A stretch of 64,000 bases of DNA. Source: Candidatus Heimdallarchaeota archaeon (GTDB taxonomy: Archaea; Asgardarchaeota; Heimdallarchaeia; Hodarchaeales; Hodarchaeaceae). The DNA is taken from contig CP070695.1 of the NCBI GenBank assembly GCA_020353515.1, forward strand, positions 537,173 to 601,172. Direction: 5' to 3'. The notes beneath the pieces were generated by a model. It saw only the letters and a list, made by a program, of their open reading frames with translations, did no database searches and was not told where the DNA came from. Shown here one piece after another: positions 48,330 to 60,642 of this stretch. Position numbers and translations under genes: made by a program. Each line of letters starts with the position of its first letter. Position 1 is the first letter of the stretch.

Positions 48330-49031
48330 TTAAGCTGGGGTGCCCAACAAAACGATGGTGTATAATGCATCAGCAGCAGAGGAAACTGCATCTGATGCAT
48401 TTTCAAGGTTTTTCGCGGTATCAAGAAGAAGAAAGTGGATAGAATACCCAAAATCGTTTGAAAGCCCTAAAATTTCCTCTCTTGCACGAAAATGAACCTC
48501 ATCAGCTTCGCGTTCACGATCTTCAATGATTTGGCGATTATCGAGAATGGTTCGATCATCTCGTCCAAGAGCTGAACACATCTTTCGGAAAACACGAACT
48601 GATTCTATAGTTAGTTTATTTATTGCCTTAAAATAGTTTAATATTGGATCCTCAAATTGTGACATATCTACATCTAGTTTAGCAAGCATAACCATATTTT
48701 TACTTGCTGTTTTTGTCCAATTTGCCGTCCTATCAGATAATCGAACGAGATGATGCATTTTTTCCCGAATTTCAGGTGGAAGAACTCCCCTGGCGATTTC
48801 GTTTGCGAGATCATCCTGGATATGATCTGCAGATCGTTCGAGCATACTTACACGATTATATAGCTTTTCTACTCGAGCTAGCTCGGGTGAGGACATGTGT
48901 TTGATTAATTCCTCACAAGACGTCAAAGTATCTAAAATTTTCTCGTTATGTTCATCTAAACTTTCTAAAATTATCTGATTACGGCGTTGCCGGAACCAAT
49001 GGAGTAAACTACTTTCTTCATTTTCATTCAA
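48330..49031 (-). CDS. DUF47/PhoU-like phosphate transport regulator family
   Basis: LERSADH and REREADE repeated helical motifs; LENASD. Confidence 0.75.
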   Translation of the reverse strand: MNENEESSLLHWFRQRRNQIILESLDEHNEKILDTLTSCEELIKHMSSPELARVEKLYNRVSMLERSADHIQDDLANEIARGVLPPEIREKMHHLVRLSDRTANWTKTASKNMVMLAKLDVDMSQFEDPILNYFKAINKLTIESVRVFRKMCSALGRDDRTILDNRQIIEDREREADEVHFRAREEILGLSNDFGYSIHFLLLDTAKNLENASDAVSSAADALYTIVLLGTPA

Positions 49032-50118
49032 GTGCTAACACCTTCTTTAAACCAAATTCTGGAGCAGTGAATAAACGTGCGTCTTGGGGGTCAATTTGAA
49101 TGTAAGTTTTTTCTTTTTCTTTCAATTGAGTCTGGGAGTCGATAATTATCGTATCATCAGTTGCTAGTTCCACTTCATATCGAATATAACCTCCACTGAA
49201 TCTTTTTCGTGAAATAGTTCCGCTAAGAGTATTATCTTGTTCCTGAGAGCAAAAATCCATGGTTTCAGGACGGAATGCTAAAACAATACTCTCACCTCGA
49301 TGGAAATTTCCTTCTAAACCTTGGAGGTCAATGTATTGATGATTTCTAAACTCAATTCTATAAGATGTTTCAGTTAATTTCTTTTTGATCATTCCCTCTA
49401 TAAAATTGCTTTCCCCCACAAAATTCATTGAAAACAAAGTTTGTGGACGCTCATAAAGCTGTTGAGGAGTTCCAACCTCCACAATCTGTCCAGCTCGAAG
49501 AATGACCAACCGATCAGATATTGACATGGCTTCTTCCTGATCATGGGTTATATGGATAGCAGTTAATCCTAAATCTTTTACAAGCTTACGAAGTTCGTAC
49601 CTAAGGGATACTCTGACTTTATAATCCAATGCAGAGATTGGTTCATCTAAAATAAGTAGCTTTTCTTGATTGGCTAGAGCTCGTGCAACTGCAGTCTTCT
49701 GTATGGCTCCTCCACTTAATGAACGGGGACGTAACTGCTTTTGTTCAAGTAAATCTACTAATCGAAGCATTTCCTCACTTATTTTTTCTTGAGTCTGTTT
49801 AGGTACATTCCTTACAAAGGGTCCGTAAGCAGCATTCTGTTCAACTGTCATGTGAGGAAAGATTGCGATACTTTGAAAAACCATAGCAAAGTCTCTTCGT
49901 TCAATGGGAATATGTGCCACATTTTTTCCGTCAATCAAGATTGTTCCATGTGTTGGTTCAACGATTCCAGTGATACAGTTTATTAGCGTGGTCTTCCCGC
50001 ATCCTGATGGGCCTAAGATACTAATGTATTCGCCTTCTTTGATTTCTAAATCGATTTTTTCAAGTGCTTTAATACGTCCAAAATATTTTGAAATCCCTTT
50101 TAATTGTACATTTGGCAT
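49024..50118 (-). CDS. ABC importer ATP-binding subunit with TOBE domain
   Basis: GPSGCGKT, LSGG, LILDEP, THDQEEA. Confidence 0.93.
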   Translation of the reverse strand: MPNVQLKGISKYFGRIKALEKIDLEIKEGEYISILGPSGCGKTTLINCITGIVEPTHGTILIDGKNVAHIPIERRDFAMVFQSIAIFPHMTVEQNAAYGPFVRNVPKQTQEKISEEMLRLVDLLEQKQLRPRSLSGGAIQKTAVARALANQEKLLILDEPISALDYKVRVSLRYELRKLVKDLGLTAIHITHDQEEAMSISDRLVILRAGQIVEVGTPQQLYERPQTLFSMNFVGESNFIEGMIKKKLTETSYRIEFRNHQYIDLQGLEGNFHRGESIVLAFRPETMDFCSQEQDNTLSGTISRKRFSGGYIRYEVELATDDTIIIDSQTQLKEKEKTYIQIDPQDARLFTAPEFGLKKVLALE

Positions 50119-51279
50119 CTAAGTCATCTCCAGTTTTTTAACTTCTTCCCAAGGTTCAATAAAATAGGATATATTATCAATAGGGATTTCTAATCTAACA
50201 TTAGTCCCAACATCGTATTGATGTAGATCTGATGAAGGAATAATCACATGAAGTTCTTTCTTTGAGAGACCTTCAACCTTAATCGCTAGATTTGCCCATT
50301 TTCCTAAGAAAAAAGCCTGTTCAACTGTTCCTTCAAAGACATTTACTTTGGGATCGGGATTTATGTTTGCCCTTAGGGGGGTCACAAGGATTTTTTCTGC
50401 TTTAATTGCAAGTACAAGTTCTTCAGTTAAATACTTCTCTTCTTTATCAATGCTACGAATAATATCTTTTGGTTTAATAGTTATATTATGCTCTCCTGCC
50501 CGAACAACTTTCCCATTAGTTTCATTTCTTACTTTTGTGGCTGGTATTAAATTTGTTGTCCCAAAAAAGTACGCAGCGAATAATGTTGAAGGATAATTAT
50601 AGATTTCTTCAGGAATATCAAATTGTACAATTTTTCCCTCATTTATGATTAATACTCTATCAGCAACAGCTATAGCTTCTTCTTGATCGTGAGTTACATG
50701 AAAGGTTGTTTTTTCAAGATCTGTAACTAATTTTCGTATCTCTGTTCGCAATCGAATACGTAATCTTGCATCTAAAGCGCGTAATGGTTCATCTAGTAAA
50801 AAAACGTCTGCATCTGCTGCGATTGCACGTGCTAAAGCTACACGTTGCATCATCCCCCCACTTAGTTCATCAGGGTATGCATTGTACCTAGTCCTTAAAT
50901 TCACTAAATCGAGTATTTCATCTCCCAACGCTATTACTTCTTCCCATGGTTTATCTCCTTTCATCTTTGGAGAAAAGACCGTGTTCTCCCACACATCCAT
51001 ATATGGAAAAAGCGAATAATCTGATGTTTGAGGTAAATATGCAAAATTACGTTTTTCAGGTGGAATATTATTTAATAGTTCACCATTCTTGTAAATATTC
51101 CCTGAAGTTGGTTTAACTAAACCTGCGATCAATTTTAGTAATGTGGTTTTTCCTGCCCCCGTTGGTCCTAAAATCACCACATATTCGCCGCGTTCTATTT
51201 CTAAATTAAAATCTTGTATGGCGTAAAGCTTTCCGAAGCGTTTTTTCAAGTTTTGAATTTCAATATATGCTCTTACCAT
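50119..51279 (-). CDS. Second ABC importer ATP-binding subunit
   Basis: GPTGAGKT, LSGGMMQR, LLDEP, THDQEEA. Confidence 0.93.
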   Translation of the reverse strand: MVRAYIEIQNLKKRFGKLYAIQDFNLEIERGEYVVILGPTGAGKTTLLKLIAGLVKPTSGNIYKNGELLNNIPPEKRNFAYLPQTSDYSLFPYMDVWENTVFSPKMKGDKPWEEVIALGDEILDLVNLRTRYNAYPDELSGGMMQRVALARAIAADADVFLLDEPLRALDARLRIRLRTEIRKLVTDLEKTTFHVTHDQEEAIAVADRVLIINEGKIVQFDIPEEIYNYPSTLFAAYFFGTTNLIPATKVRNETNGKVVRAGEHNITIKPKDIIRSIDKEEKYLTEELVLAIKAEKILVTPLRANINPDPKVNVFEGTVEQAFFLGKWANLAIKVEGLSKKELHVIIPSSDLHQYDVGTNVRLEIPIDNISYFIEPWEEVKKLEMT

Positions 51280-51290
51280 ACAATTTTCTC

Positions 51291-53015
51291 CTAACCTGTA
51301 CGTTTACCTTTTTTTGTTACCTTAGCTCGGAGAACGAAGATCAGTAGAGACGAAATCAGGATTAATATCACTGTTGTAAGAGCTGCAAAGAAATAATCAG
51401 GTTCTGCACCCTTTATCAGAGCAACTATGAAGACTGGAGCGGTGATGGATTCAGGAGAAACAGCTAAAGTTGCTCCTGTTTCCCCAATACTGCGGGTGAA
51501 AGACATAATGGCTCCAGCGATAATTGAAAATTTTACTACTGGAAAAGTAACATGACGAAATGTTTGGATTGGCCGTGCACCTAAGCTTCGTGCAGCATCT
51601 TCATATGCAGGATCAAGTTCAGCCAATCCTCCAATGGTGTTTCTAACAATAAAAGGAAAAGTCATGCTAATATGTGCCATAATAACAAAAAAGAATTCAT
51701 TTGTAGGAAAAATGATTTGAGTAGTCCAGAATAAACCTACACTAAACCCTAATGCTGCACTAGGTACAACATAAGGAATATCGACAAGTGCGTCAAGAAT
51801 ACGGGAAAAAAAATGGTTTTTACGTGTGATAAGAATTGCCATGGGAACTCCTAATCCCACATTAACAAGTGTAGCAATAGCAGCTACTACTACCGATAAC
51901 AAAATACTCTGTCCAAAAAGAAGCCAATCAGCAGTGAGAAGTTTTTCAGGACTTACACCTTGAAAAATGTAAAAAATCAAAAAAAAAGAGGGAATTAAGA
52001 CGAAAAAAACTAGGAAACCAAAGGATAAAATTGAACGAGCTTTTGGTGCGGTACCCTCACTGACCCTCCATTCAAAACTTGGAAACACTCGTCGAAACGG
52101 TAATTTTGCTTGTTTTGCTAAAATTTTTGCGAGAAAAACTAAAAATAATGCAATACCGATCATTAATACACTAACAAAAGCCATTCCAGGTAATAGATAA
52201 CCGAGGGGTTCTTCTCCTGCCGCAATTGCATCTTTATATTCACCTTTCCAATTACCGATTAACACCGTACCCGTCTGTTTGAGACTACTAATAGTAGCTA
52301 AAACAGTCATCACTCCACCAGTATCACTTAAACTTTTAGCAAGACTTAGTACCATTGCTGTTGCGACTCCAGACCTAAATAAAGGAAGTGTTACAGTCCT
52401 TGCTGCTGTAAACTTACTTGCTCCACATGTTCGAGCAGCGATTTCTAGAGTGATGTCAATTTCATCTAATATGGCCGCTAATGAACGAACGACGTATGGA
52501 AAGGTCGTAGTAAAATGGAAGAGAACTAAAATAGGTAGAGCATCTTGTATGAAATCTAAAGCTAAAAATGGTTTTACAGGGACACTAGGAGTTACTCCCC
52601 AAAAAAGAGCGACTGAGAAACCAAGACCAGCTGTTGGAACAGCTAAAGGGAGTTCAATAATGCTATTTAAGATAGATTTAAACCGAAATTCTTTTCGTAC
52701 CAATATCCAAGCAATAGGGAGACCAAAGAATAAATCTATTATTGTTACCGTAACTGACACAATAATTGAGTATAGCAGTGCTTCCAAAATCTCAGATAAG
52801 ATTGTTGGATTAGAGAGTACCACAGATTGGATAACGGTAAATTCCAAGACTGCATAGATTAAAACAAATATCGTTGGAAATAAGACAAGGGATATAAAAA
52901 ATAAAATAATAAAAAAATACCACAAATAAGAGACGATAGGTTTTGATACGAATTCAATAAACCTAGTTTGATACTCTTTGAATTGTTGTTGAGGTGAACT
53001 GGGAATCAGTGTCAT
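51291..53015 (-). CDS. Fused double-domain ABC importer permease (CysT/ModB/FbpB-like)
   Basis: Two EAA loops (LEIAARTCGAS, YEDAARSLGA); PLAVPTAGLG/PYVVPSAALG; SIGETGAT. Confidence 0.9.
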   Translation of the reverse strand: MTLIPSSPQQQFKEYQTRFIEFVSKPIVSYLWYFFIILFFISLVLFPTIFVLIYAVLEFTVIQSVVLSNPTILSEILEALLYSIIVSVTVTIIDLFFGLPIAWILVRKEFRFKSILNSIIELPLAVPTAGLGFSVALFWGVTPSVPVKPFLALDFIQDALPILVLFHFTTTFPYVVRSLAAILDEIDITLEIAARTCGASKFTAARTVTLPLFRSGVATAMVLSLAKSLSDTGGVMTVLATISSLKQTGTVLIGNWKGEYKDAIAAGEEPLGYLLPGMAFVSVLMIGIALFLVFLAKILAKQAKLPFRRVFPSFEWRVSEGTAPKARSILSFGFLVFFVLIPSFFLIFYIFQGVSPEKLLTADWLLFGQSILLSVVVAAIATLVNVGLGVPMAILITRKNHFFSRILDALVDIPYVVPSAALGFSVGLFWTTQIIFPTNEFFFVIMAHISMTFPFIVRNTIGGLAELDPAYEDAARSLGARPIQTFRHVTFPVVKFSIIAGAIMSFTRSIGETGATLAVSPESITAPVFIVALIKGAEPDYFFAALTTVILILISSLLIFVLRAKVTKKGKRTG

Positions 53016-53335: not shown

Positions 53336-54340
53336 GTGAAATTCATGAAAGAAATACAAGTTACCCTTCCTACTGATCGTAAAACCTTGATGGAGGAATT
53401 TCTTAAGGAATTCTCTCTCCAAGCTACCAGTTACGATTTTGGGGAATCTTTTCGCTTTGAATGTCGGATTGATGACTATCAAACAAATTATGCTTTAGAG
53501 GAATTGAAAGCCCGAGGGATCGGGGTGGCATATGGTGATATTGTTGTTAGACCTGTGTCTCTCCTCATTTCAAGTAGAAAAGAAGAAGATGTATTACCTG
53601 CAAGCGCGGGAGTGAATAGACAAGAAATACTCGCCAATCTAGGTGAGATATCTGGTCTTTCAAGTTCTTACCTTCTTATGAATATACTCGCTGCGGCTTT
53701 AGCCGCTTTTGGTCTTCTTAACAATGATGTGGTTGTTATTATTGCTAGTATGATTGTAGCTCCCCTCTTGGGTCCAATTGTCCTCACGTCACTTGGATTA
53801 TTGAGTCTCGAAACGACATCTTATATCAAACGAGGATTACTCGCTGAAATATCAGGTATTTCTGTTACAGTAATAGTTGGAGCTTTGATCGGAATCGTAT
53901 TCCAATCTTTGGAAAGAATCGACGCTGATAAGCTAAAGGAACTAGGTTATTCTGAAATAATGAATCGTACGGCTTTAACTGTTCCCACTATCTCTCTTGC
54001 ATTGTTGGGTGGTCTTGCAGCAGGAATAATTGTCGCTCGGGGTCTTGATGTTTCAATTGTAGGGGTAGCTATCGCTGCAAGTTTATGTCCACCTGCAGCA
54101 ACAATTGGTATTCTGGGAGCGTTGGGTGCTTGGAGTCTTGCTCTTAAAGCAACAAGTCTTTTACTCCTAAACATCTTGGCGATTAATCTCTCTTGTACTG
54201 GGGTTTTTTGGATATTTGGAGTCAAAAGTAGAGGGCTTTCCAAAAGACAAGCAGAAAAAGTAAGACGTATGAATATAATTTGGATTTTTGTGGTCACACT
54301 TCTCTTAATATTGATTCTTCTTTCTGCTGGAACCACTTAA
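53336..54340 (+). CDS. DUF389/TIGR00341-type membrane protein
   Basis: IIASMIVAPLLGP, GVAIAASLCPPA, LLLLNILAINL. Confidence 0.85.
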   Translation: MKFMKEIQVTLPTDRKTLMEEFLKEFSLQATSYDFGESFRFECRIDDYQTNYALEELKARGIGVAYGDIVVRPVSLLISSRKEEDVLPASAGVNRQEILANLGEISGLSSSYLLMNILAAALAAFGLLNNDVVVIIASMIVAPLLGPIVLTSLGLLSLETTSYIKRGLLAEISGISVTVIVGALIGIVFQSLERIDADKLKELGYSEIMNRTALTVPTISLALLGGLAAGIIVARGLDVSIVGVAIAASLCPPAATIGILGALGAWSLALKATSLLLLNILAINLSCTGVFWIFGVKSRGLSKRQAEKVRRMNIIWIFVVTLLLILILLSAGTT

Positions 54341-54349
54341 TGAGGAAAT

Positions 54350-56668
54350 TTACTCCTCACTCTCTTCATTCTCTTTATCATCTAATTGTACAATACAAAG
54401 ACGGCCTTCAACTACATCGATTTTTGCATTGATTTCATTCTGATTTATCATTTCATAAACTAGTTCTTCGAGCTCCTTCGGATCAATCTCGACATTCTTT
54501 GCTAAAGTTTCGATTGGAACACTACCAATCTTCCTGATCCTTATCGCTAGTTCTTCCCTTTGTTTTTTTCTCAATAGAGCATCAGAAAGCATCCCTGCCA
54601 CCGCTATTACACGTTGAAGATCTCCTTTTTGATATGCATGGAATACATCATAGATAATGTTGCCAAACGACCCTAAATTACGCGATAATACTTCCTGTAC
54701 TAGTTTAACACCAAATTCGCTCTGATGTTCAATGATCTCAAGTGCTACCAATCCTGCATCGAATTTTGCAAGCCCAAGCCAGATCTCATCTGGTTTAATA
54801 CCTGGAGATTCATAATGACTCAGATATGTTCGAATAGCTCGTCTTTGCAAAGTCACATTGCGTGCAGAAATCATTCCAATTAATGTACGGACATGTTCTC
54901 GTTCAATTGGTGATAATGATTTTGTAATATGGTAATCAACTACTTGTTTCAGTAATTGTTCAATGAATTGAATATCTTGTTTACTTATGGAAATAATTAA
55001 TGAAACCTTTTGAGCAAATGTAACAAAATCTGGAGATTCTAAATCCGTTAGTAACCAACCCAAGAGTTCTTTCGTAAAAGGCAAAGGTCTAGGTTTTAAA
55101 AAATCTACATAAATTGGGATTAATTGAATATGTTGGGTTTCTAAAGCCGCAGTAAGCTTTTTTGCAGCATAAGTAGCCATATCTGCATTCTTTGAGATAG
55201 CATCACCAATGCCCTGAACTAGTTCACTTTCAGAATCGATAGTTTCCAATTTTAGGAGAGTCTGAATTGCGTCTGTGAATGCCTCTTGACTCTCATATTG
55301 GATACTAGGTTCTCCTTTTTCATTCTCCTTCGAGGTTGAATTTAAAACGTCTTCTTCAATCACAACTGTTGTTTTTTGCTCTGAAGATGGAAACTCGTCT
55401 GATAGCTCCTGCATTAGGCCTTCGATCATTTCCTGTGTGAGAGTTAAGGATGTGTCATCAAAATCATAATTTTTAGGTATAGTATCTAATAACTCAACTG
55501 TTGGAGGGGGAGAATCGCTCTCAACACCTGGCGCAGGCTTTGTACTAACTCTTGTTTCTGTTTCATCTTCTTCAGTTTCAGAAGTAGGTTCAACTTTGTA
55601 CGAAAGCTGAGTTACTAAGTCTTCAAGAGTACGTTCAGCACTGATTTCTTCTGATTCAACCGAAACGTCCTTGATAGAGAGACCCATGCTCTTTAAAATT
55701 GGTGTTAAATCCTTTTTATCTTTTATTTTGAGAAGATCCTCCATGATGACGTTGAAACCCTTAGAACGGAGAGAAGTAACCTCACTGGCTTCGTCAGGAC
55801 CAACAACCAAATGATCCACTATTCCAGAGCACAACTCTGCAATTCCGAGTAATGTAGGTTTGACACCTAATAATTGAAGAATAAACTGCTCTCTAAAGGT
55901 GAATTGGCTAGGACAAACCAACGTAGATGGAGCCTTTGATTCTTTAATGGTCTTTGTGAATTCTTTATGTAACACAAGGAGAGCTAATGAGCAAGGATCT
56001 TCAGCTAACCAGAGAATTGCATCAGCTTCATCAATAACTTTTCTTATTTCATCAGTTAAGATGTCTCTCCCCAAATCTAACCCGAGAAGTTCAATAGGCT
56101 TTTTCCCTTTCTTTTTGTCTTTGCCTTCTGTACTTTCTACAAGGAGGTTTTGAAGTTCTTCAAGATCCGTTTTTTGTTCGGCTCCTCGATCCACGAAACC
56201 TGTGATCTGGAAGTAGCGTAATGGAACTTGGGAGGTCGGGGTTTTAATTGTAACAACCTCCTCAGGAAATTTCAAGGGATAAGCTTCAAGAGATTTCCCA
56301 GCATATTCATTCAATGCTTTAAAAAAATCGTAAAAGCTTTGTTTCGCCTTTTTTCTTTCACTAACCCATTGTACTAAGAACATTTCTGCATCGTTAAATG
56401 GTATTCGGGTTTGAGAAATTGACTGTGAGAAAATTTTAGCCAATGAACTTGTAGTCAAGTCATCAGGCACAATCGCACTAGCTAACTTTACTACTTCATG
56501 ATGATACCATACATCTCCCACACCTTTACCTTGATTATAAGTTAATGCAAAATCAGCGGTCGTGTTGAGAATCATTGTAAATCCTATACCAGCATGGAGA
56601 AATTCCAAAACTAGGGGAGGAAGATCAACTCCTGCTGATATTACCACTAACCGCTTTTCTGTTCCCAT
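54350..56668 (-). CDS. Degenerate CofD-like domain + acidic linker + helical region + C-terminal PCI domain
   Basis: N-terminal ~330 aa follow CofD motif order; C-terminus VPIETLAKNVEIDPKELEELVYEMINQNEINAKID fits the PCI winged helix. Confidence 0.75.
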   Translation of the reverse strand: MGTEKRLVVISAGVDLPPLVLEFLHAGIGFTMILNTTADFALTYNQGKGVGDVWYHHEVVKLASAIVPDDLTTSSLAKIFSQSISQTRIPFNDAEMFLVQWVSERKKAKQSFYDFFKALNEYAGKSLEAYPLKFPEEVVTIKTPTSQVPLRYFQITGFVDRGAEQKTDLEELQNLLVESTEGKDKKKGKKPIELLGLDLGRDILTDEIRKVIDEADAILWLAEDPCSLALLVLHKEFTKTIKESKAPSTLVCPSQFTFREQFILQLLGVKPTLLGIAELCSGIVDHLVVGPDEASEVTSLRSKGFNVIMEDLLKIKDKKDLTPILKSMGLSIKDVSVESEEISAERTLEDLVTQLSYKVEPTSETEEDETETRVSTKPAPGVESDSPPPTVELLDTIPKNYDFDDTSLTLTQEMIEGLMQELSDEFPSSEQKTTVVIEEDVLNSTSKENEKGEPSIQYESQEAFTDAIQTLLKLETIDSESELVQGIGDAISKNADMATYAAKKLTAALETQHIQLIPIYVDFLKPRPLPFTKELLGWLLTDLESPDFVTFAQKVSLIISISKQDIQFIEQLLKQVVDYHITKSLSPIEREHVRTLIGMISARNVTLQRRAIRTYLSHYESPGIKPDEIWLGLAKFDAGLVALEIIEHQSEFGVKLVQEVLSRNLGSFGNIIYDVFHAYQKGDLQRVIAVAGMLSDALLRKKQREELAIRIRKIGSVPIETLAKNVEIDPKELEELVYEMINQNEINAKIDVVEGRLCIVQLDDKENEESEE

Positions 56669-56947: not shown

Positions 56948-57376
56948 TTAAGAATCAACTACTGTAAAGGAATATGTATCAGAAACTAGTATATTGTTTT
57001 TTTTATCACTTATCACGAAATATAAGTCAAATTGAGTTCCTACTGAAATAAAAGGTCCTAATCGGATCAAAAATCTAGGTGGACAACATAGAATAACGTA
57101 ACGTCTTAGAGCTCTGGAGACCCATTCACTCTCATTCAATCTATAATAAATTTTACAAAATTCTATACCAGAAACATCTTCAACAAATATTTGAATTGTA
57201 GAAGATGTATTCACTTTGGGATGAGGATTGTACCCTACTGATATTATTCTTGGGGGATCTTTATCATTAATCATACGAAGAAAATTAATACCTACAAATC
57301 CTCCTATTAACATAGTAATGGTGATAGCTATCACAATGATGATTTTCTTCACAGAGGCCATGTAATAGACGCTCAA
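56948..57376 (-). CDS. Small membrane-anchored Ig-like protein with CCPP motif
   Basis: N-terminal TM; DKDPPRI..VEDVSGI..IYYR..W Ig-like pattern; ILCCPP. Confidence 0.7.
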   Translation of the reverse strand: MSVYYMASVKKIIIVIAITITMLIGGFVGINFLRMINDKDPPRIISVGYNPHPKVNTSSTIQIFVEDVSGIEFCKIYYRLNESEWVSRALRRYVILCCPPRFLIRLGPFISVGTQFDLYFVISDKKNNILVSDTYSFTVVDS

Positions 57377-57475: not shown

Positions 57476-58516
57476 TTGAAAATGATTTGGAATTTTCACA
57501 TTGCCATTGAACTACTACTAGGCTTTTTAACTCTCATATTATCGGCATACGGTGCATATGTGGCTTATAAAATCATGATAAGTCAGAATGAGGAGAATTC
57601 TCAAACTCCTGAAAAGGAAAAAGAGAATTTTTATTATTTATTAAGTATGATTTCAGTAATATTGCTTGTATCCCGTTCTCTCAATGTTTTTTACTTTTAT
57701 TATGTTCTAGTATCACTTGTTCCGATCATCCCTGGATCTATGTGCCCTTATGGGGTATTGGATGCATCTCTCCCCTCTATTGGTTTTTTAGATCTTATAA
57801 TAAAATTTATAGTTCCTTTTGCTTATGGTGCATGGTTAATCCTTGATCATATCAATAAAAAGACACGAAAACTCGTTCTAACAGCTTTTCTATCCAAATT
57901 GTATGTGTTTGGTATGTTTCCGTTACTCTTAATTGACTCTGGTCTGGATTGGATATATTTCTGGTTTTTGGAACCTATAGAGGTCAATTGTTGTCGTAAT
58001 GTTCTTAATGAAGCCTTTAGTTATAATCCCATTCAAATCCTTGGGCCAGAGACGGCATTGATTTCGTTTCTCTTCACTATGGCCCTTTTGTTGATAATCA
58101 TAATACTACAGTTATTTCAAGATCACAATCCACTTTTCTTATTTGGATCCCTTCTTCTAGCGATTCTAGCTGTCCCGTTTTTCCTAATAGCAATCCAAGA
58201 ATTTATTGCTCCTGTTTGGATCACAACATCTAAGGATTTGCTTAAACAACCTCTAGGTGAACCTCATCATTGTCCATTTTGTTTAGTAAAACGATGGTGG
58301 ACAATGATCCCATATCTTTTGCTAATTTGGCTTGGTTTAGCCTCAGTAGGATGGGAGGCCATTATAAGGGGAGTTACTAAGAAAAACATTGAAATCAAGG
58401 AGGAAACCCAACCAATTCTACGTTATTTACGGTTAACAAGTTTGATTAGTCTCATCAGTGGTTTTATAATATTGAGTGGTCACTTTGCTTTCTTTATAGT
58501 GATCGATCTAATTTAA
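57476..58516 (+). CDS. Polytopic membrane protein with GxMC, CC and HHCPFC motifs
   Basis: ~8 TM; GSMCPYG, NCCR, PHHCPFC. Confidence 0.8.
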   Translation: MKMIWNFHIAIELLLGFLTLILSAYGAYVAYKIMISQNEENSQTPEKEKENFYYLLSMISVILLVSRSLNVFYFYYVLVSLVPIIPGSMCPYGVLDASLPSIGFLDLIIKFIVPFAYGAWLILDHINKKTRKLVLTAFLSKLYVFGMFPLLLIDSGLDWIYFWFLEPIEVNCCRNVLNEAFSYNPIQILGPETALISFLFTMALLLIIIILQLFQDHNPLFLFGSLLLAILAVPFFLIAIQEFIAPVWITTSKDLLKQPLGEPHHCPFCLVKRWWTMIPYLLLIWLGLASVGWEAIIRGVTKKNIEIKEETQPILRYLRLTSLISLISGFIILSGHFAFFIVIDLI

Positions 58517-58654: not shown

Positions 58655-59815
58655 ATGACCATGAATTTCGATTTACCTGAAGAATCCATGATGATGCGTG
58701 ACGCAGTACGAGAGTTTGCTGAAAAGGAGATTCAACCAATAGCAGCGGAGCTAGATGAAAAAGAAGAATACTCACCAGAACTAACGAAAAGAATGGGGGA
58801 TCTTGGATTAATGGGAATTACAATTCCCGAGAAATATGGTGGTTGTGGACTTACGTACCTTTCATACATAGTGGCAGTTGAAGAACTTGCTAGAGTTGAT
58901 GGTTCCCAAGCAGCAACCGTGGCAGCTCATAATTCGCTTGGAATAGGGCCAATTTATTATTTTGGGTCGGATGAACAGAAAGAGCACTATTTACCAAAGC
59001 TTACTACAGGTGAAAAAGTGTGGGGATTTGGTTTGACTGAACCAGAAGCAGGAAGTGATGCAGGGGGTACTAAAACTAAAGCAGTGCAAGATGGTAACGA
59101 GTGGCTTATCAATGGATCCAAAATTTTTATCACTAATGGATCAACTCCGGCATCGCTTGGTTCTACAGTTCAAGCAGTCACAGGTACAAGATCAGATGGA
59201 CGTGGCAAAGAATATACTTGTTTCCTGGTAGATCAGGGGACTGAGGGGTTCGAAACCAGAACAATGCATAAGAAGATTTGCTGGCGCGCATCAATCACAT
59301 CAGAACTTTATTTCACAGATTGTAGGGTGCCAGAAAGTCAAATGCTTGGTTCTCGTGGAGAAGGTTTTTATCAGATGCTAGATACTCTTGATAAAGGAAG
59401 ACTATCTATTGGCGCTATGGGATTAGGTTGTGCTCAAGGTGCTTTTGAACTCGCACTAGAATATGCTAAACAGAGAAAGGCTTTTGGTCGGCCTATAGCA
59501 AAATTTCAAGCAAATGCATTCAAACTAGCTGATATGGCAGTAGAAATTGAGGCTGCACGAAACCTCCTCTATAAAGCAACGTGGCTTTTTGATCAAGGTA
59601 GAGATGAATATAAAACTTTAGCTGCAATGGCAAAACTGTATTGCTCTGAGGTTTCCAAAAGAGTCGTTCACCAAGCAGTCCAGCTGCATGGTGGATACGG
59701 GTTGATGAAAGAATATCCTGTTGAACGTTTCTATCGAGACCAAAGATTACTAGAAATCGGAGAAGGAACCAGCGAAATTCAACGCCTTGTTATAGCCAGA
59801 AAGCTGGGTTGTTAG
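58655..59815 (+). CDS. Acyl-CoA dehydrogenase
   Basis: LTEPEAGSDA, NGSKIFITN, QLHGGYG, EIGEGTSEIQR. Confidence 0.96.
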   Translation: MTMNFDLPEESMMMRDAVREFAEKEIQPIAAELDEKEEYSPELTKRMGDLGLMGITIPEKYGGCGLTYLSYIVAVEELARVDGSQAATVAAHNSLGIGPIYYFGSDEQKEHYLPKLTTGEKVWGFGLTEPEAGSDAGGTKTKAVQDGNEWLINGSKIFITNGSTPASLGSTVQAVTGTRSDGRGKEYTCFLVDQGTEGFETRTMHKKICWRASITSELYFTDCRVPESQMLGSRGEGFYQMLDTLDKGRLSIGAMGLGCAQGAFELALEYAKQRKAFGRPIAKFQANAFKLADMAVEIEAARNLLYKATWLFDQGRDEYKTLAAMAKLYCSEVSKRVVHQAVQLHGGYGLMKEYPVERFYRDQRLLEIGEGTSEIQRLVIARKLGC

Positions 59816-59826
59816 CAACATATTCT

Positions 59827-60348
59827 TTATAGAGGATTAATTTCCTTTAACATGATGAAAAAATCCATCACTTCCCCCCACTTAATGGATTCACTACTCG
59901 GAGGTTTTTCTAAAGAATATCGAATGTAAGCTACTTGAGCAAAATGATGGATTGCATGTAAGGAGGTTCTTTCAACCATCCAAGCAAGGGTTCCTGGTTT
60001 TTGAAGATTATCTTCCTTAAATGCTGGTTTTCTAGGAATAATTTCATCTTTAGCTGCAATATCGATTAATCCAGTAATGTGTACTTCAAGTTGTTTGTAA
60101 CGATCCATTATTTCTGTAAAAGAAGCCTCTTTGAAAAGATAATCGAAAGTATCATCACCTAGTGTCTTAAGCCAGTAAACCTCTGCATTAACGATATGTC
60201 GAAGATAACTTTGAATTGTCCTTGCTCTTGTTCCTTCAGGACGCCATGTTAATTCATCCAAAGTCAAGCCTTCAAGCTGACGATATCCATAGGTTCTGAT
60301 AATCTGAACTAGTTCCTTCAATCGCTGTTGATAAGTAGTGTTTTCCAT
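59827..60348 (-). CDS. DinB/YfiT family protein
   Basis: LRHIVNAEVYW and HAIHHFAQV His triad; likely start MENTT at 60348. Confidence 0.85.
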   Translation of the reverse strand: MENTTYQQRLKELVQIIRTYGYRQLEGLTLDELTWRPEGTRARTIQSYLRHIVNAEVYWLKTLGDDTFDYLFKEASFTEIMDRYKQLEVHITGLIDIAAKDEIIPRKPAFKEDNLQKPGTLAWMVERTSLHAIHHFAQVAYIRYSLEKPPSSESIKWGEVMDFFIMLKEINPL

Positions 60349-60642
60349 AGAGATCACAGATTCTGGAATATTCTTCCAATTGGTAAAGCTTAGAATGAAT
60401 CTGCATTGATCAAACAATTTATTAATATTCTACTGAGGATAAACCATGAAGGATTCCTTTCATATCCTCCTAAACTCTGATATCCCATTATTGGAATCTG
60501 AGTTTACCTCGTTTGCCTTCAAAGGAAAGGAACATTCTCGGTTCCTTTTCTTTTCTCCATTATTGAAGCCAGAATTGTATTTTTAGAGAAATTTTACGTT
60601 TTTCTTAATTATTGTGAAATTAACTTACTGAATGGATCTGTT

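Follow-up and report, generated by a model that had tools for sequence, protein, structure and literature searches.

CofD/FbiA (PF01933; structures 3CGW, 3C3D, 3C3E, 6UVX and 6UW3) is the LPPG- or EPPG:Fo phosphotransferase of F420 biosynthesis. The same fold is found outside F420 synthesis in YvcK/GlmR (UPF0052; structures 2HZB, 2O2Z and 2PPV), and YvcK keeps the glycine-rich loop. PCI scaffolds organise the proteasome lid, the COP9 signalosome (CSN) and eIF3, and the PCI domains of eIF3 contact RNA. To our knowledge, the prokaryotic prehistory of PCI scaffolds is poorly known, and we know of no characterised PCI protein with an enzyme-derived head. Here, we describe such a protein, encoded in a 64,000 nucleotide stretch of the Candidatus Heimdallarchaeota archaeon contig CP070695.1 (positions 537,173 to 601,172, referred to as the window). 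It joins a degenerate CofD-type domain (pseudo-CofD) via an acidic linker to a helical solenoid and a PCI-type winged helix, and is referred to as the fusion. The Heimdall class is the Asgard lineage nearest to the eukaryotes. Families of this class are designated f1 (the window's own family) and f3 to f7, and f12, f23 and f30 are other Asgard families. The coordinates of all features are listed in Table 1.

When Pfam was searched with the 772 aa protein, PCI (PF01399) was the sole significant match. No NCBIfam family matches the fusion protein, and the ESM Atlas gave no usable match for it. A word-indexed protein search recovered 49 homologs with 54-100 % identity, all from Hodarchaeales/Heimdall-group metagenome-assembled genomes and, where a name was given, called 'PCI domain-containing protein'. 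Searches of the PDB sequences with the single protein or a narrow Hodarchaeales profile found nothing meaningful, and matches were obtained only with a class-wide profile. The AlphaFold2 model has a mean predicted local distance difference test (pLDDT) score of 76.9, with both folded parts at about 80-93. Across the class, conservation is highest in the winged helix (33 % identity), followed by the pseudo-CofD domain (20 %), the solenoid (17 %) and the linker (14.6 %). A description of a CofD-PCI fusion is absent from the literature searched, where PCI domains and Asgard archaea were found together only in a paper on ESCRT-linked kinases.

The relationship of the N-terminal domain to CofD was found with both structure and profile comparisons. 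In the AlphaFold2 model, residues 7-328 superpose on the Methanosarcina mazei CofD (3cgw) with a Z-score of 20.6 and a root-mean-square deviation (rmsd) of 3.2 Å over 274 of 303 residues using VIA, and the Foldseek E-value against the CofD fold is 4.3e-7. In VIA comparisons of the same domain model, FbiA reached a Z-score of about 20, and the UPF0052/YvcK structures about 16.5. YvcK was considered as the closest relative and rejected, as its Z-score is lower than that of CofD and the profile matches go to CofD. With hhalign, the class-wide profile of the N-terminal domain matched a profile of 21 Heimdall CofDs with a probability of 99.0 % and an E-value of 2.5e-18 over 287 columns (5-323 against 3-303 of 309). 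The family profile also matched the genome's own canonical CofD (271 columns, probability 82.7 %, E-value 9.6e-6). This protein, P0050, is the only canonical CofD in the genome; it scores 160.7 bits with PF01933 and has the GGTGTPKL, NTGDD, PDVD and GPSNP motifs intact.

The window's fusion protein has no match to PF01933 in Pfam (gathering cut-off, 30 bits). Its close homologs score 17.8-28.6 bits, all just below the cut-off, and 30 of the 32 aligned family members touch the profile at an E-value of 1 or less (best, 1e-6). These matches are collinear, with residues 8-262 corresponding to profile positions 2-219, and residues 178-314 to positions 137-273. An original prediction made from the DNA alone held that the first 330 or so residues track CofD block by block, and all five blocks were reproduced by hhalign and BLASTP. 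The CofD/YvcK fold expected for residues 1-335 was likewise recovered, on CofD, by Foldseek, VIA and hhalign. The fold and the order of blocks are shared with CofD/FbiA over the whole domain (about 275 residues), and N35, D39, an acid at the position of FbiA D57, P131, the Pro and Ser of PSNPxxS, P253 and D285 are common to both. Unlike CofD/FbiA, the fusion has about 20 residues inserted in the first hairpin/loop region and about 440 further residues fused to the domain. Together with the motif losses described below, these data support a CofD-derived domain that has lost canonical catalytic features.

The catalytic motifs were compared in an alignment of 14 fused domains, 10 stand-alone pseudo-CofDs (see below), 41 canonical Asgard CofDs and one further canonical sequence. 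In the fusion, SAGVDLPP replaces SGGTGTPK in the N-terminal loop. In or just after this loop (GGxGxxK), the 41 Asgard CofDs have four invariant glycines, of which the fusion retains only G13. The loop lysine has become Pro18, confirming the predicted loss of the GGxG loop. In FbiA, the ligands of the catalytic metal are D45, D57 and the beta-phosphate of the GDP moiety (PMC7253369). The two aspartates map to D39 and D51 of P0050. The fusion has NTTAD for NTGDD, and the D45 position is A38 in the window's protein. This position is variable across the fused family, whereas 7 of the 10 stand-alone pseudo-CofDs have His there. The D57 position is occupied by an invariant Glu, E58, this equivalence being taken from a sequence alignment bridged by the stand-alone forms and not from superposed coordinates. 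Hence, the DLD acidic motif, thought to have been lost, is only partly so: the second Asp and the D45 ligand are gone, but the first Asp is kept as E58. The second Asp of PDxD is gone from the fused forms, and the WWG, WFxLGDxD and SGP blocks, invariant in the 41 Asgard CofDs, are deleted or replaced in them. AEDPCS stands for GPSNPxS, making the PSNP motif x-x-D-P. The Asn is an Asp (D224) in all 24 of the aligned pseudo-CofDs, and the Pro remains, so that the loss of SNP is correct for the Asn but not for the Pro.

Residues D39, E58, R151, D224, S227 and D285 are invariant or nearly so across the class. As the replacement residues are strictly conserved, selection acts on the domain for something besides canonical CofD chemistry, and it is not simply decaying. 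On sequence grounds, we infer that catalysis has been lost and that the fusion protein would not be an F420-synthesis enzyme.

In the C-terminal half, the linker has a net charge of -24 and is the least conserved region across the class. Disorder is predicted for linker residues 357-404 and 424-455 (pLDDT <50). Within Hodarchaeales, the alignment reveals a conserved motif, LLDT..NYDF.D.SL.LTQEMIE.LM.EL (residues 393-423), in which L393, D395, F403, L408, L418, M419, E421 and L422 are invariant and residues 412-423 are predicted to form a helix. In the AlphaFold2 model, the helices of the solenoid (461-691) have pLDDT values of about 85-90, and the helical part runs to residue 714 and the winged helix to residue 761.

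The PCI match to PF01399 scores 35.4 bits (curated cut-off, 22 bits; E-value 1.3e-8), covers residues 695-758 and is present in all 32 family members. The class-wide profile matched the PCI winged helix of eIF3e in the PDB sequences, with E-values of 7.7e-5 to 9.5e-5, and then eIF3c (E-value 0.23), CofD and FbiA at the expected positions. The best structural matches of residues 459-772 in VIA were CSN2 (Z-score 11.5), proteasome-lid subunits (10-11.2), CSN4 and eIF3a, though Z-scores in this range can be reached by helical repeats that are not homologous. The superpositions on CSN2 and the lid subunits cover the model from residue 451 or 459 to residue 772, and the winged helix alone gave Z-scores of 9-10 with an rmsd of about 2 Å. 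The PCI assignment is specific because of the Pfam match and the eIF3e profile match, and not because of the fold scores; these two matches bear out a PCI domain rather than a generic helix-turn-helix. The linker, helical region and winged helix are arranged as originally described. As in the PCI subunits CSN2, Rpn6, CSN4, eIF3e and eIF3a, a winged helix follows a helical solenoid. However, unlike in lid and CSN subunits, the winged helix is not followed by the long helix of the C-terminal bundle, only by 9 acidic residues in the translation and the model, and neither a paralogous set of PCI proteins nor a linked MPN gene was detected. In f4, the orthologues extend past the winged helix, with a C2H2 zinc finger, a helix-hairpin-helix (HhH)-like motif or a Lys-rich tail.

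To examine the distribution of the fusion in the class, 83 species genomes were searched in six frames. In f1, f3, f4, f5 and f6, matches extend over the full length (query 1-770, 22-26 % identity, open reading frames of 750-1000 aa), and each of the 14 high-quality genomes of the class has a match. A sample of 301 genomes of the phylum yielded no full-length fusion outside the class, so that the architecture occurs in most of the class's families and in none beyond it in this sample. A canonical CofD, essentially single-copy, is present in 77 of the 83 genomes, including those of families that do not have the fusion. The fusion is therefore an extra paralogue that exists beside the real enzyme.

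In f7, only matches to the C-terminal half were found and no pseudo-CofD fusion was detected. The f7 proteins consist of a PRC barrel, a helical solenoid and a weak PCI match (about 600 aa), and there are second paralogues of about 470-500 aa. The PRC-barrel proteins suggest that the solenoid-PCI module can carry interchangeable heads.

Pseudo-CofDs also occur alone. Eleven were found in four other Asgard families, and a profile built from the first of them gave E-values of 1e-95 or lower for these eleven versus 1e-58 or higher for canonical CofDs. The names given in the sources are Odinarchaeia, Freyarchaeota/Jordarchaeia and Helarchaeota, the fourth family being f12, and the proteins are labelled 'YvcK family' or 'CofD family'. 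They are about 302-349 aa long, share the degenerate motifs and the DUF389 neighbour (see below) with the fusion, and do not have the linker, solenoid or PCI domain. The motifs are x-G-x-E-x-x-P for GGTGxPK, an acid at the D57 position and x-D-P-x-S, and further CofD residues, namely R104, E154 and the second Asp of PDxD (P0050 numbering), are retained. Three of the four stand-alone forms tested exceed the Pfam CofD cut-off (44-58 bits), whereas the fused domains stay below it. In a search of 1.84 billion representative proteins, two more stand-alone lineages, both from Odinarchaeia, appeared before the canonical CofDs. As only two were added from so many proteins, the pseudo-CofD family is small. 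A search for related loci returned just the known Odin contig from genome contigs and none from metagenome contigs.

A quick, unrooted tree, which includes several long branches, placed the 41 canonical CofDs on one side of a branch with a Shimodaira-Hasegawa approximate likelihood ratio test (SH-aLRT) value of 99, grouped the 14 fused domains (98), and placed the stand-alone pseudo-CofDs between them. This topology fits one origin of the pseudo-enzyme and then one fusion event. Because stand-alone forms with the same degenerate motifs are found in other Asgard classes, the pseudo-CofD is older than the fusion. The proposal that a metabolic domain was repurposed on the PCI scaffold is therefore not upheld, as the repurposing predates the fusion.

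It is a DUF389/TIGR00341 membrane protein, rather than another PCI or MPN protein, that is the conserved genomic partner of the pseudo-CofD, and DUF389 occurs in a single copy in the class. Comparison of coordinates revealed that the fusion and DUF389 genes are adjacent and convergent in all 16 f1 genomes in which both were detected, and in 4/4 genomes of f4 genera g6 to g8. DUF389 also directly adjoins 6 of the 10 stand-alone pseudo-CofD genes. In f12 (4/4) and f30, it lies directly downstream on the same strand, with a gap of 8-15 bp or overlapping reading frames, and in Odin the two genes are convergent. In the two f23 (Freya/Jord) loci for which wider flanks were examined, DUF389 is about 1.6 kb downstream, past an SPFH/Band-7 gene. 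The pairing was thus found in at least five families over several Asgard classes and in two gene arrangements, among pseudo-CofD domains that are only about 20-25 % identical. When flanks of the same size were examined, DUF389 was next to canonical cofD at none of 20 loci.

The AlphaFold2 model of the window's DUF389 protein has a pLDDT of 83.8 and a predicted template modelling (pTM) score of 0.72. Residues 1-83 form a beta-alpha-beta-beta-alpha-beta domain for which the top Foldseek matches are PstA, PII, CutA and SbtB-type proteins (VIA Z-scores 9-10, rmsd 1.4-2.6 Å). A helical membrane domain comes next, in which residues 104-296 weakly resemble FNT channels and aquaporins (Z-scores 9-10, rmsd 4-5 Å, 160-195 residues). 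As the domain is all-helical, these modelled similarities are no more than suggestive of a channel. A search of the literature found no paper on DUF389 or TIGR00341. The DUF389 proteins next to stand-alone pseudo-CofDs have a C-terminal extension of about 85 residues after the last membrane helix that the Heimdall-class DUF389 proteins do not have. In the Freya/Jord loci, a gene for a 110 aa protein accompanies the SPFH/Band-7 gene between pseudo-CofD and DUF389.

YvcK/GlmR is the nearest functional analogy. It is a CofD-fold regulator that switches between its partners GlmS and YvcJ depending on the ligand UDP-GlcNAc (PMC7525490). It differs from the fusion in its gene partners, which are yvcJ and whiA rather than DUF389, and does not have a PCI module. 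It is also structurally further from the fusion than CofD/FbiA is.

We tentatively favour a composite reading in which a non-catalytic pseudo-CofD acts with DUF389 and has acquired a PCI module. As a CofD paralogue, the pseudo-CofD no longer has the glycine loop for phosphate binding and is missing half of the metal site, yet it keeps a polar cluster of its own. By analogy with GlmR/YvcK, it may be a cytoplasmic regulatory or adaptor subunit of the DUF389 membrane protein, in which a PII-like domain on the cytoplasmic side is joined to a membrane domain that may be channel-like. A single fusion in the Heimdall class would have joined the pseudo-CofD, via the acidic disordered linker, to the solenoid and PCI winged helix, a module that probably serves to oligomerise the protein or to recruit further partners. 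From the gene pairing, we infer that pseudo-CofD and DUF389 are coupled physically or functionally, and the originally proposed role of the pseudo-CofD as a ligand sensor or interaction module is plausible. However, several observations weigh against this reading. The fusion and DUF389 genes are unlinked in f4 genera g5 and g9, in f5 and in f6; in genome G024, for example, they are 206 kb apart. The convergent orientation of the two genes in the Heimdall class and Odin means that they are not co-transcribed. DUF389 is also found in f7, bacteria and methanogens, far more widely than the pseudo-CofD, and so does not need this partner. Finally, metal binding and a degree of catalysis could persist at the conserved acidic cluster. 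The convergent orientation and the loss of linkage in many Heimdall genera would be expected if the adjacency were inherited synteny of no functional meaning and the fusion acted independently of DUF389. We consider this very unlikely, given that the pairing recurs in so many families despite the divergence of the pseudo-CofDs, that it takes two arrangements and that canonical cofD loci do not share it. Retention of enzyme activity with a changed chemistry (another phospho- or nucleotidyl-transfer, tethered to the scaffold) would explain the invariant D39, E58, D224, S227 and D285 at former active-site positions, and Listeria GlmR, another CofD-fold protein, was reported to be an accessory uridyltransferase (PMC10128056). 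However, the loop has lost its Lys and all but one of its four glycines, Ala, Gly, Ser, Cys or His stands in for one of the two metal ligands, and the WWG, WFxLGDxD and SGP blocks are deleted or replaced, so that this appears quite unlikely.

The C-terminal module allows further interpretations. If the CofD head sensed a nucleotide-type ligand and the winged helix bound DNA or RNA, the fusion would be a ligand-responsive regulator. The winged helix superposes on Z-alpha (Z-score 9.6) and on a ROK repressor (8.8) in VIA, and both the tails of the f4 orthologues and the established RNA contacts of eIF3 PCI domains are in keeping with this. However, the third helix, which takes the recognition position in the winged helix, is acidic with a net charge of -3, the entire winged helix carries the same net charge, and the 9-residue tail is acidic too, which argues against canonical DNA recognition in the window's orthologue. 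The Pfam match is to PCI and not to a DNA-binding helix-turn-helix family, and the nucleic-acid-type tails are lineage-specific, suggesting that the core does not bind alone. A role of this kind is considered unlikely. Alternatively, the fusion could be a subunit of an archaeal lid/CSN/eIF3-type PCI complex with MPN partners, the pseudo-CofD being peripheral. In favour of this, Pfam, the fold comparison and the eIF3e profile agree that the PCI module is genuine, no other part of the protein is as well conserved as the winged helix, and four JAB/MPN proteins are encoded in the genome. Yet no second protein of the genome combines a solenoid with a PCI winged helix, the conserved neighbours include neither MPN nor PCI genes, and the long C-terminal helix that forms the lid/CSN bundle is missing. 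Nothing pointing to a multi-PCI complex of this kind was found, and we consider it highly improbable. A broader and distinctly speculative possibility, which we regard as improbable, is that the solenoid-PCI part is a self-standing adaptor cassette with interchangeable sensor heads (a pseudo-CofD in the majority of families, a PRC barrel in f7). It would link the channel-like DUF389 to cytoplasmic and, in some lineages, nucleic-acid-bound assemblies, and would represent a pre-eukaryotic stage of PCI scaffolds that preceded the lid, CSN and eIF3.

The fusion represents a PCI-type protein that occurs class-wide and in single copy in the closest Asgard relatives of the eukaryotes, and the origin of its head can be traced stepwise from an intact CofD, through a stand-alone pseudo-CofD beside DUF389, to the fused pseudo-CofD-PCI protein. 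It offers an archaeal example of a pseudo-enzyme and a testable entry to two uncharacterised families, DUF389/TIGR00341 and the Asgard pseudo-CofDs, which are annotated as ordinary 'CofD/YvcK family' proteins. We recommend that pseudo-CofDs be excluded from the F420-biosynthesis genes when the metabolism of Asgard archaea is reconstructed from genomes.

Table 1. Features of the fusion gene, its neighbours and related loci. Positions are those of the window unless preceded by a locus (L) or genome (G) identifier
Feature	Coordinates	Strand	Evidence or remarks
Whole fusion gene	54350..56668	(-)	Uninterrupted open reading frame, 772 codons and stop; pseudo-CofD, linker, solenoid, PCI winged helix
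CofD/FbiA-fold domain, residues 5-331	55676..56656	(-)	VIA, Foldseek, hhalign, motif table
Acidic linker, residues 332-458	55295..55675	(-)	AlphaFold2 pLDDT, charge calculation
Short linker motif, residues 393-423	55400..55492	(-)	Hodarchaeales alignment
Helical solenoid, residues 459-692	54593..55294	(-)	AlphaFold2 model, VIA
PCI-type winged helix, residues 693-763	54380..54592	(-)	Pfam PF01399, class profile
Short acidic tail, residues 764-772	54353..54379	(-)	Translation, model, class alignment
DUF389/TIGR00341 membrane protein	53336..54340	(+)	Convergent, ends 9 bp from the fusion stop codon; PF04087, 98 bits
ABC transporter operon	49024-53015	(-)	Two ATPases and a fused double permease
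142 aa membrane-anchored protein	56948-57376	(-)	Upstream of fusion; no Pfam match
346 aa polytopic membrane protein	57476-58516	(+)	Upstream of fusion; no Pfam match
Acyl-CoA dehydrogenase	58655-59815	(+)	
DinB-family protein	59827-60417	(-)	
Canonical CofD, P0050	G000:C1:729170-729970		
420 aa protein with two winged helices	L003:1195-2457 (G000:C1 ~620130-621392)	(+)	About 19 kb past the window end
f7 C-terminal-half protein, genome G073	L027:968-2764	(+)	
f7 C-terminal-half protein, genome G072	L028:620-2113	(+)	
f4 orthologues with extra tails	L020:266-2890; L022:159-3035; L019:282-2984	(-)	
P0051 and equivalents	L058:10652-13399	(-)	Also in L059, L060 and L063
SPFH/Band-7 and 110 aa genes, Freya/Jord	L080:8657-9990; L081:8622-9943		Between pseudo-CofD and DUF389
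Extended DUF389 proteins	L084:7265-8494; L082:6506-7750; L080:10126-11430	(+)	

Other matches to the PCI model in the genome are a 420 aa protein and two weak ordinary winged helix-turn-helix proteins. The 420 aa protein has two winged helices, each followed by a Cys-rich zinc-ribbon/RING-like motif, and the first scores 30.4 bits with PCI (residues 103-140). Of the four JAB/MPN proteins, two are about 300 aa long, and all are unlinked to the fusion gene. At four f4 loci, a gene directly upstream of the fusion on the same strand encodes P0051, a helical protein of about 900-920 aa with a tetratricopeptide repeat (TPR)-like sequence and no Pfam match. It was considered as a general partner and rejected, as the query used did not detect it in the window's genome. 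A scan for promoters and terminators, not designed for archaea, gave counts that were not above those for shuffled sequence. The ABC transporter operon and the acyl-CoA dehydrogenase and DinB genes are syntenic with the fusion only within f1, and the genes for the 142 aa and 346 aa membrane proteins are conserved in three Hodarchaeales loci only.

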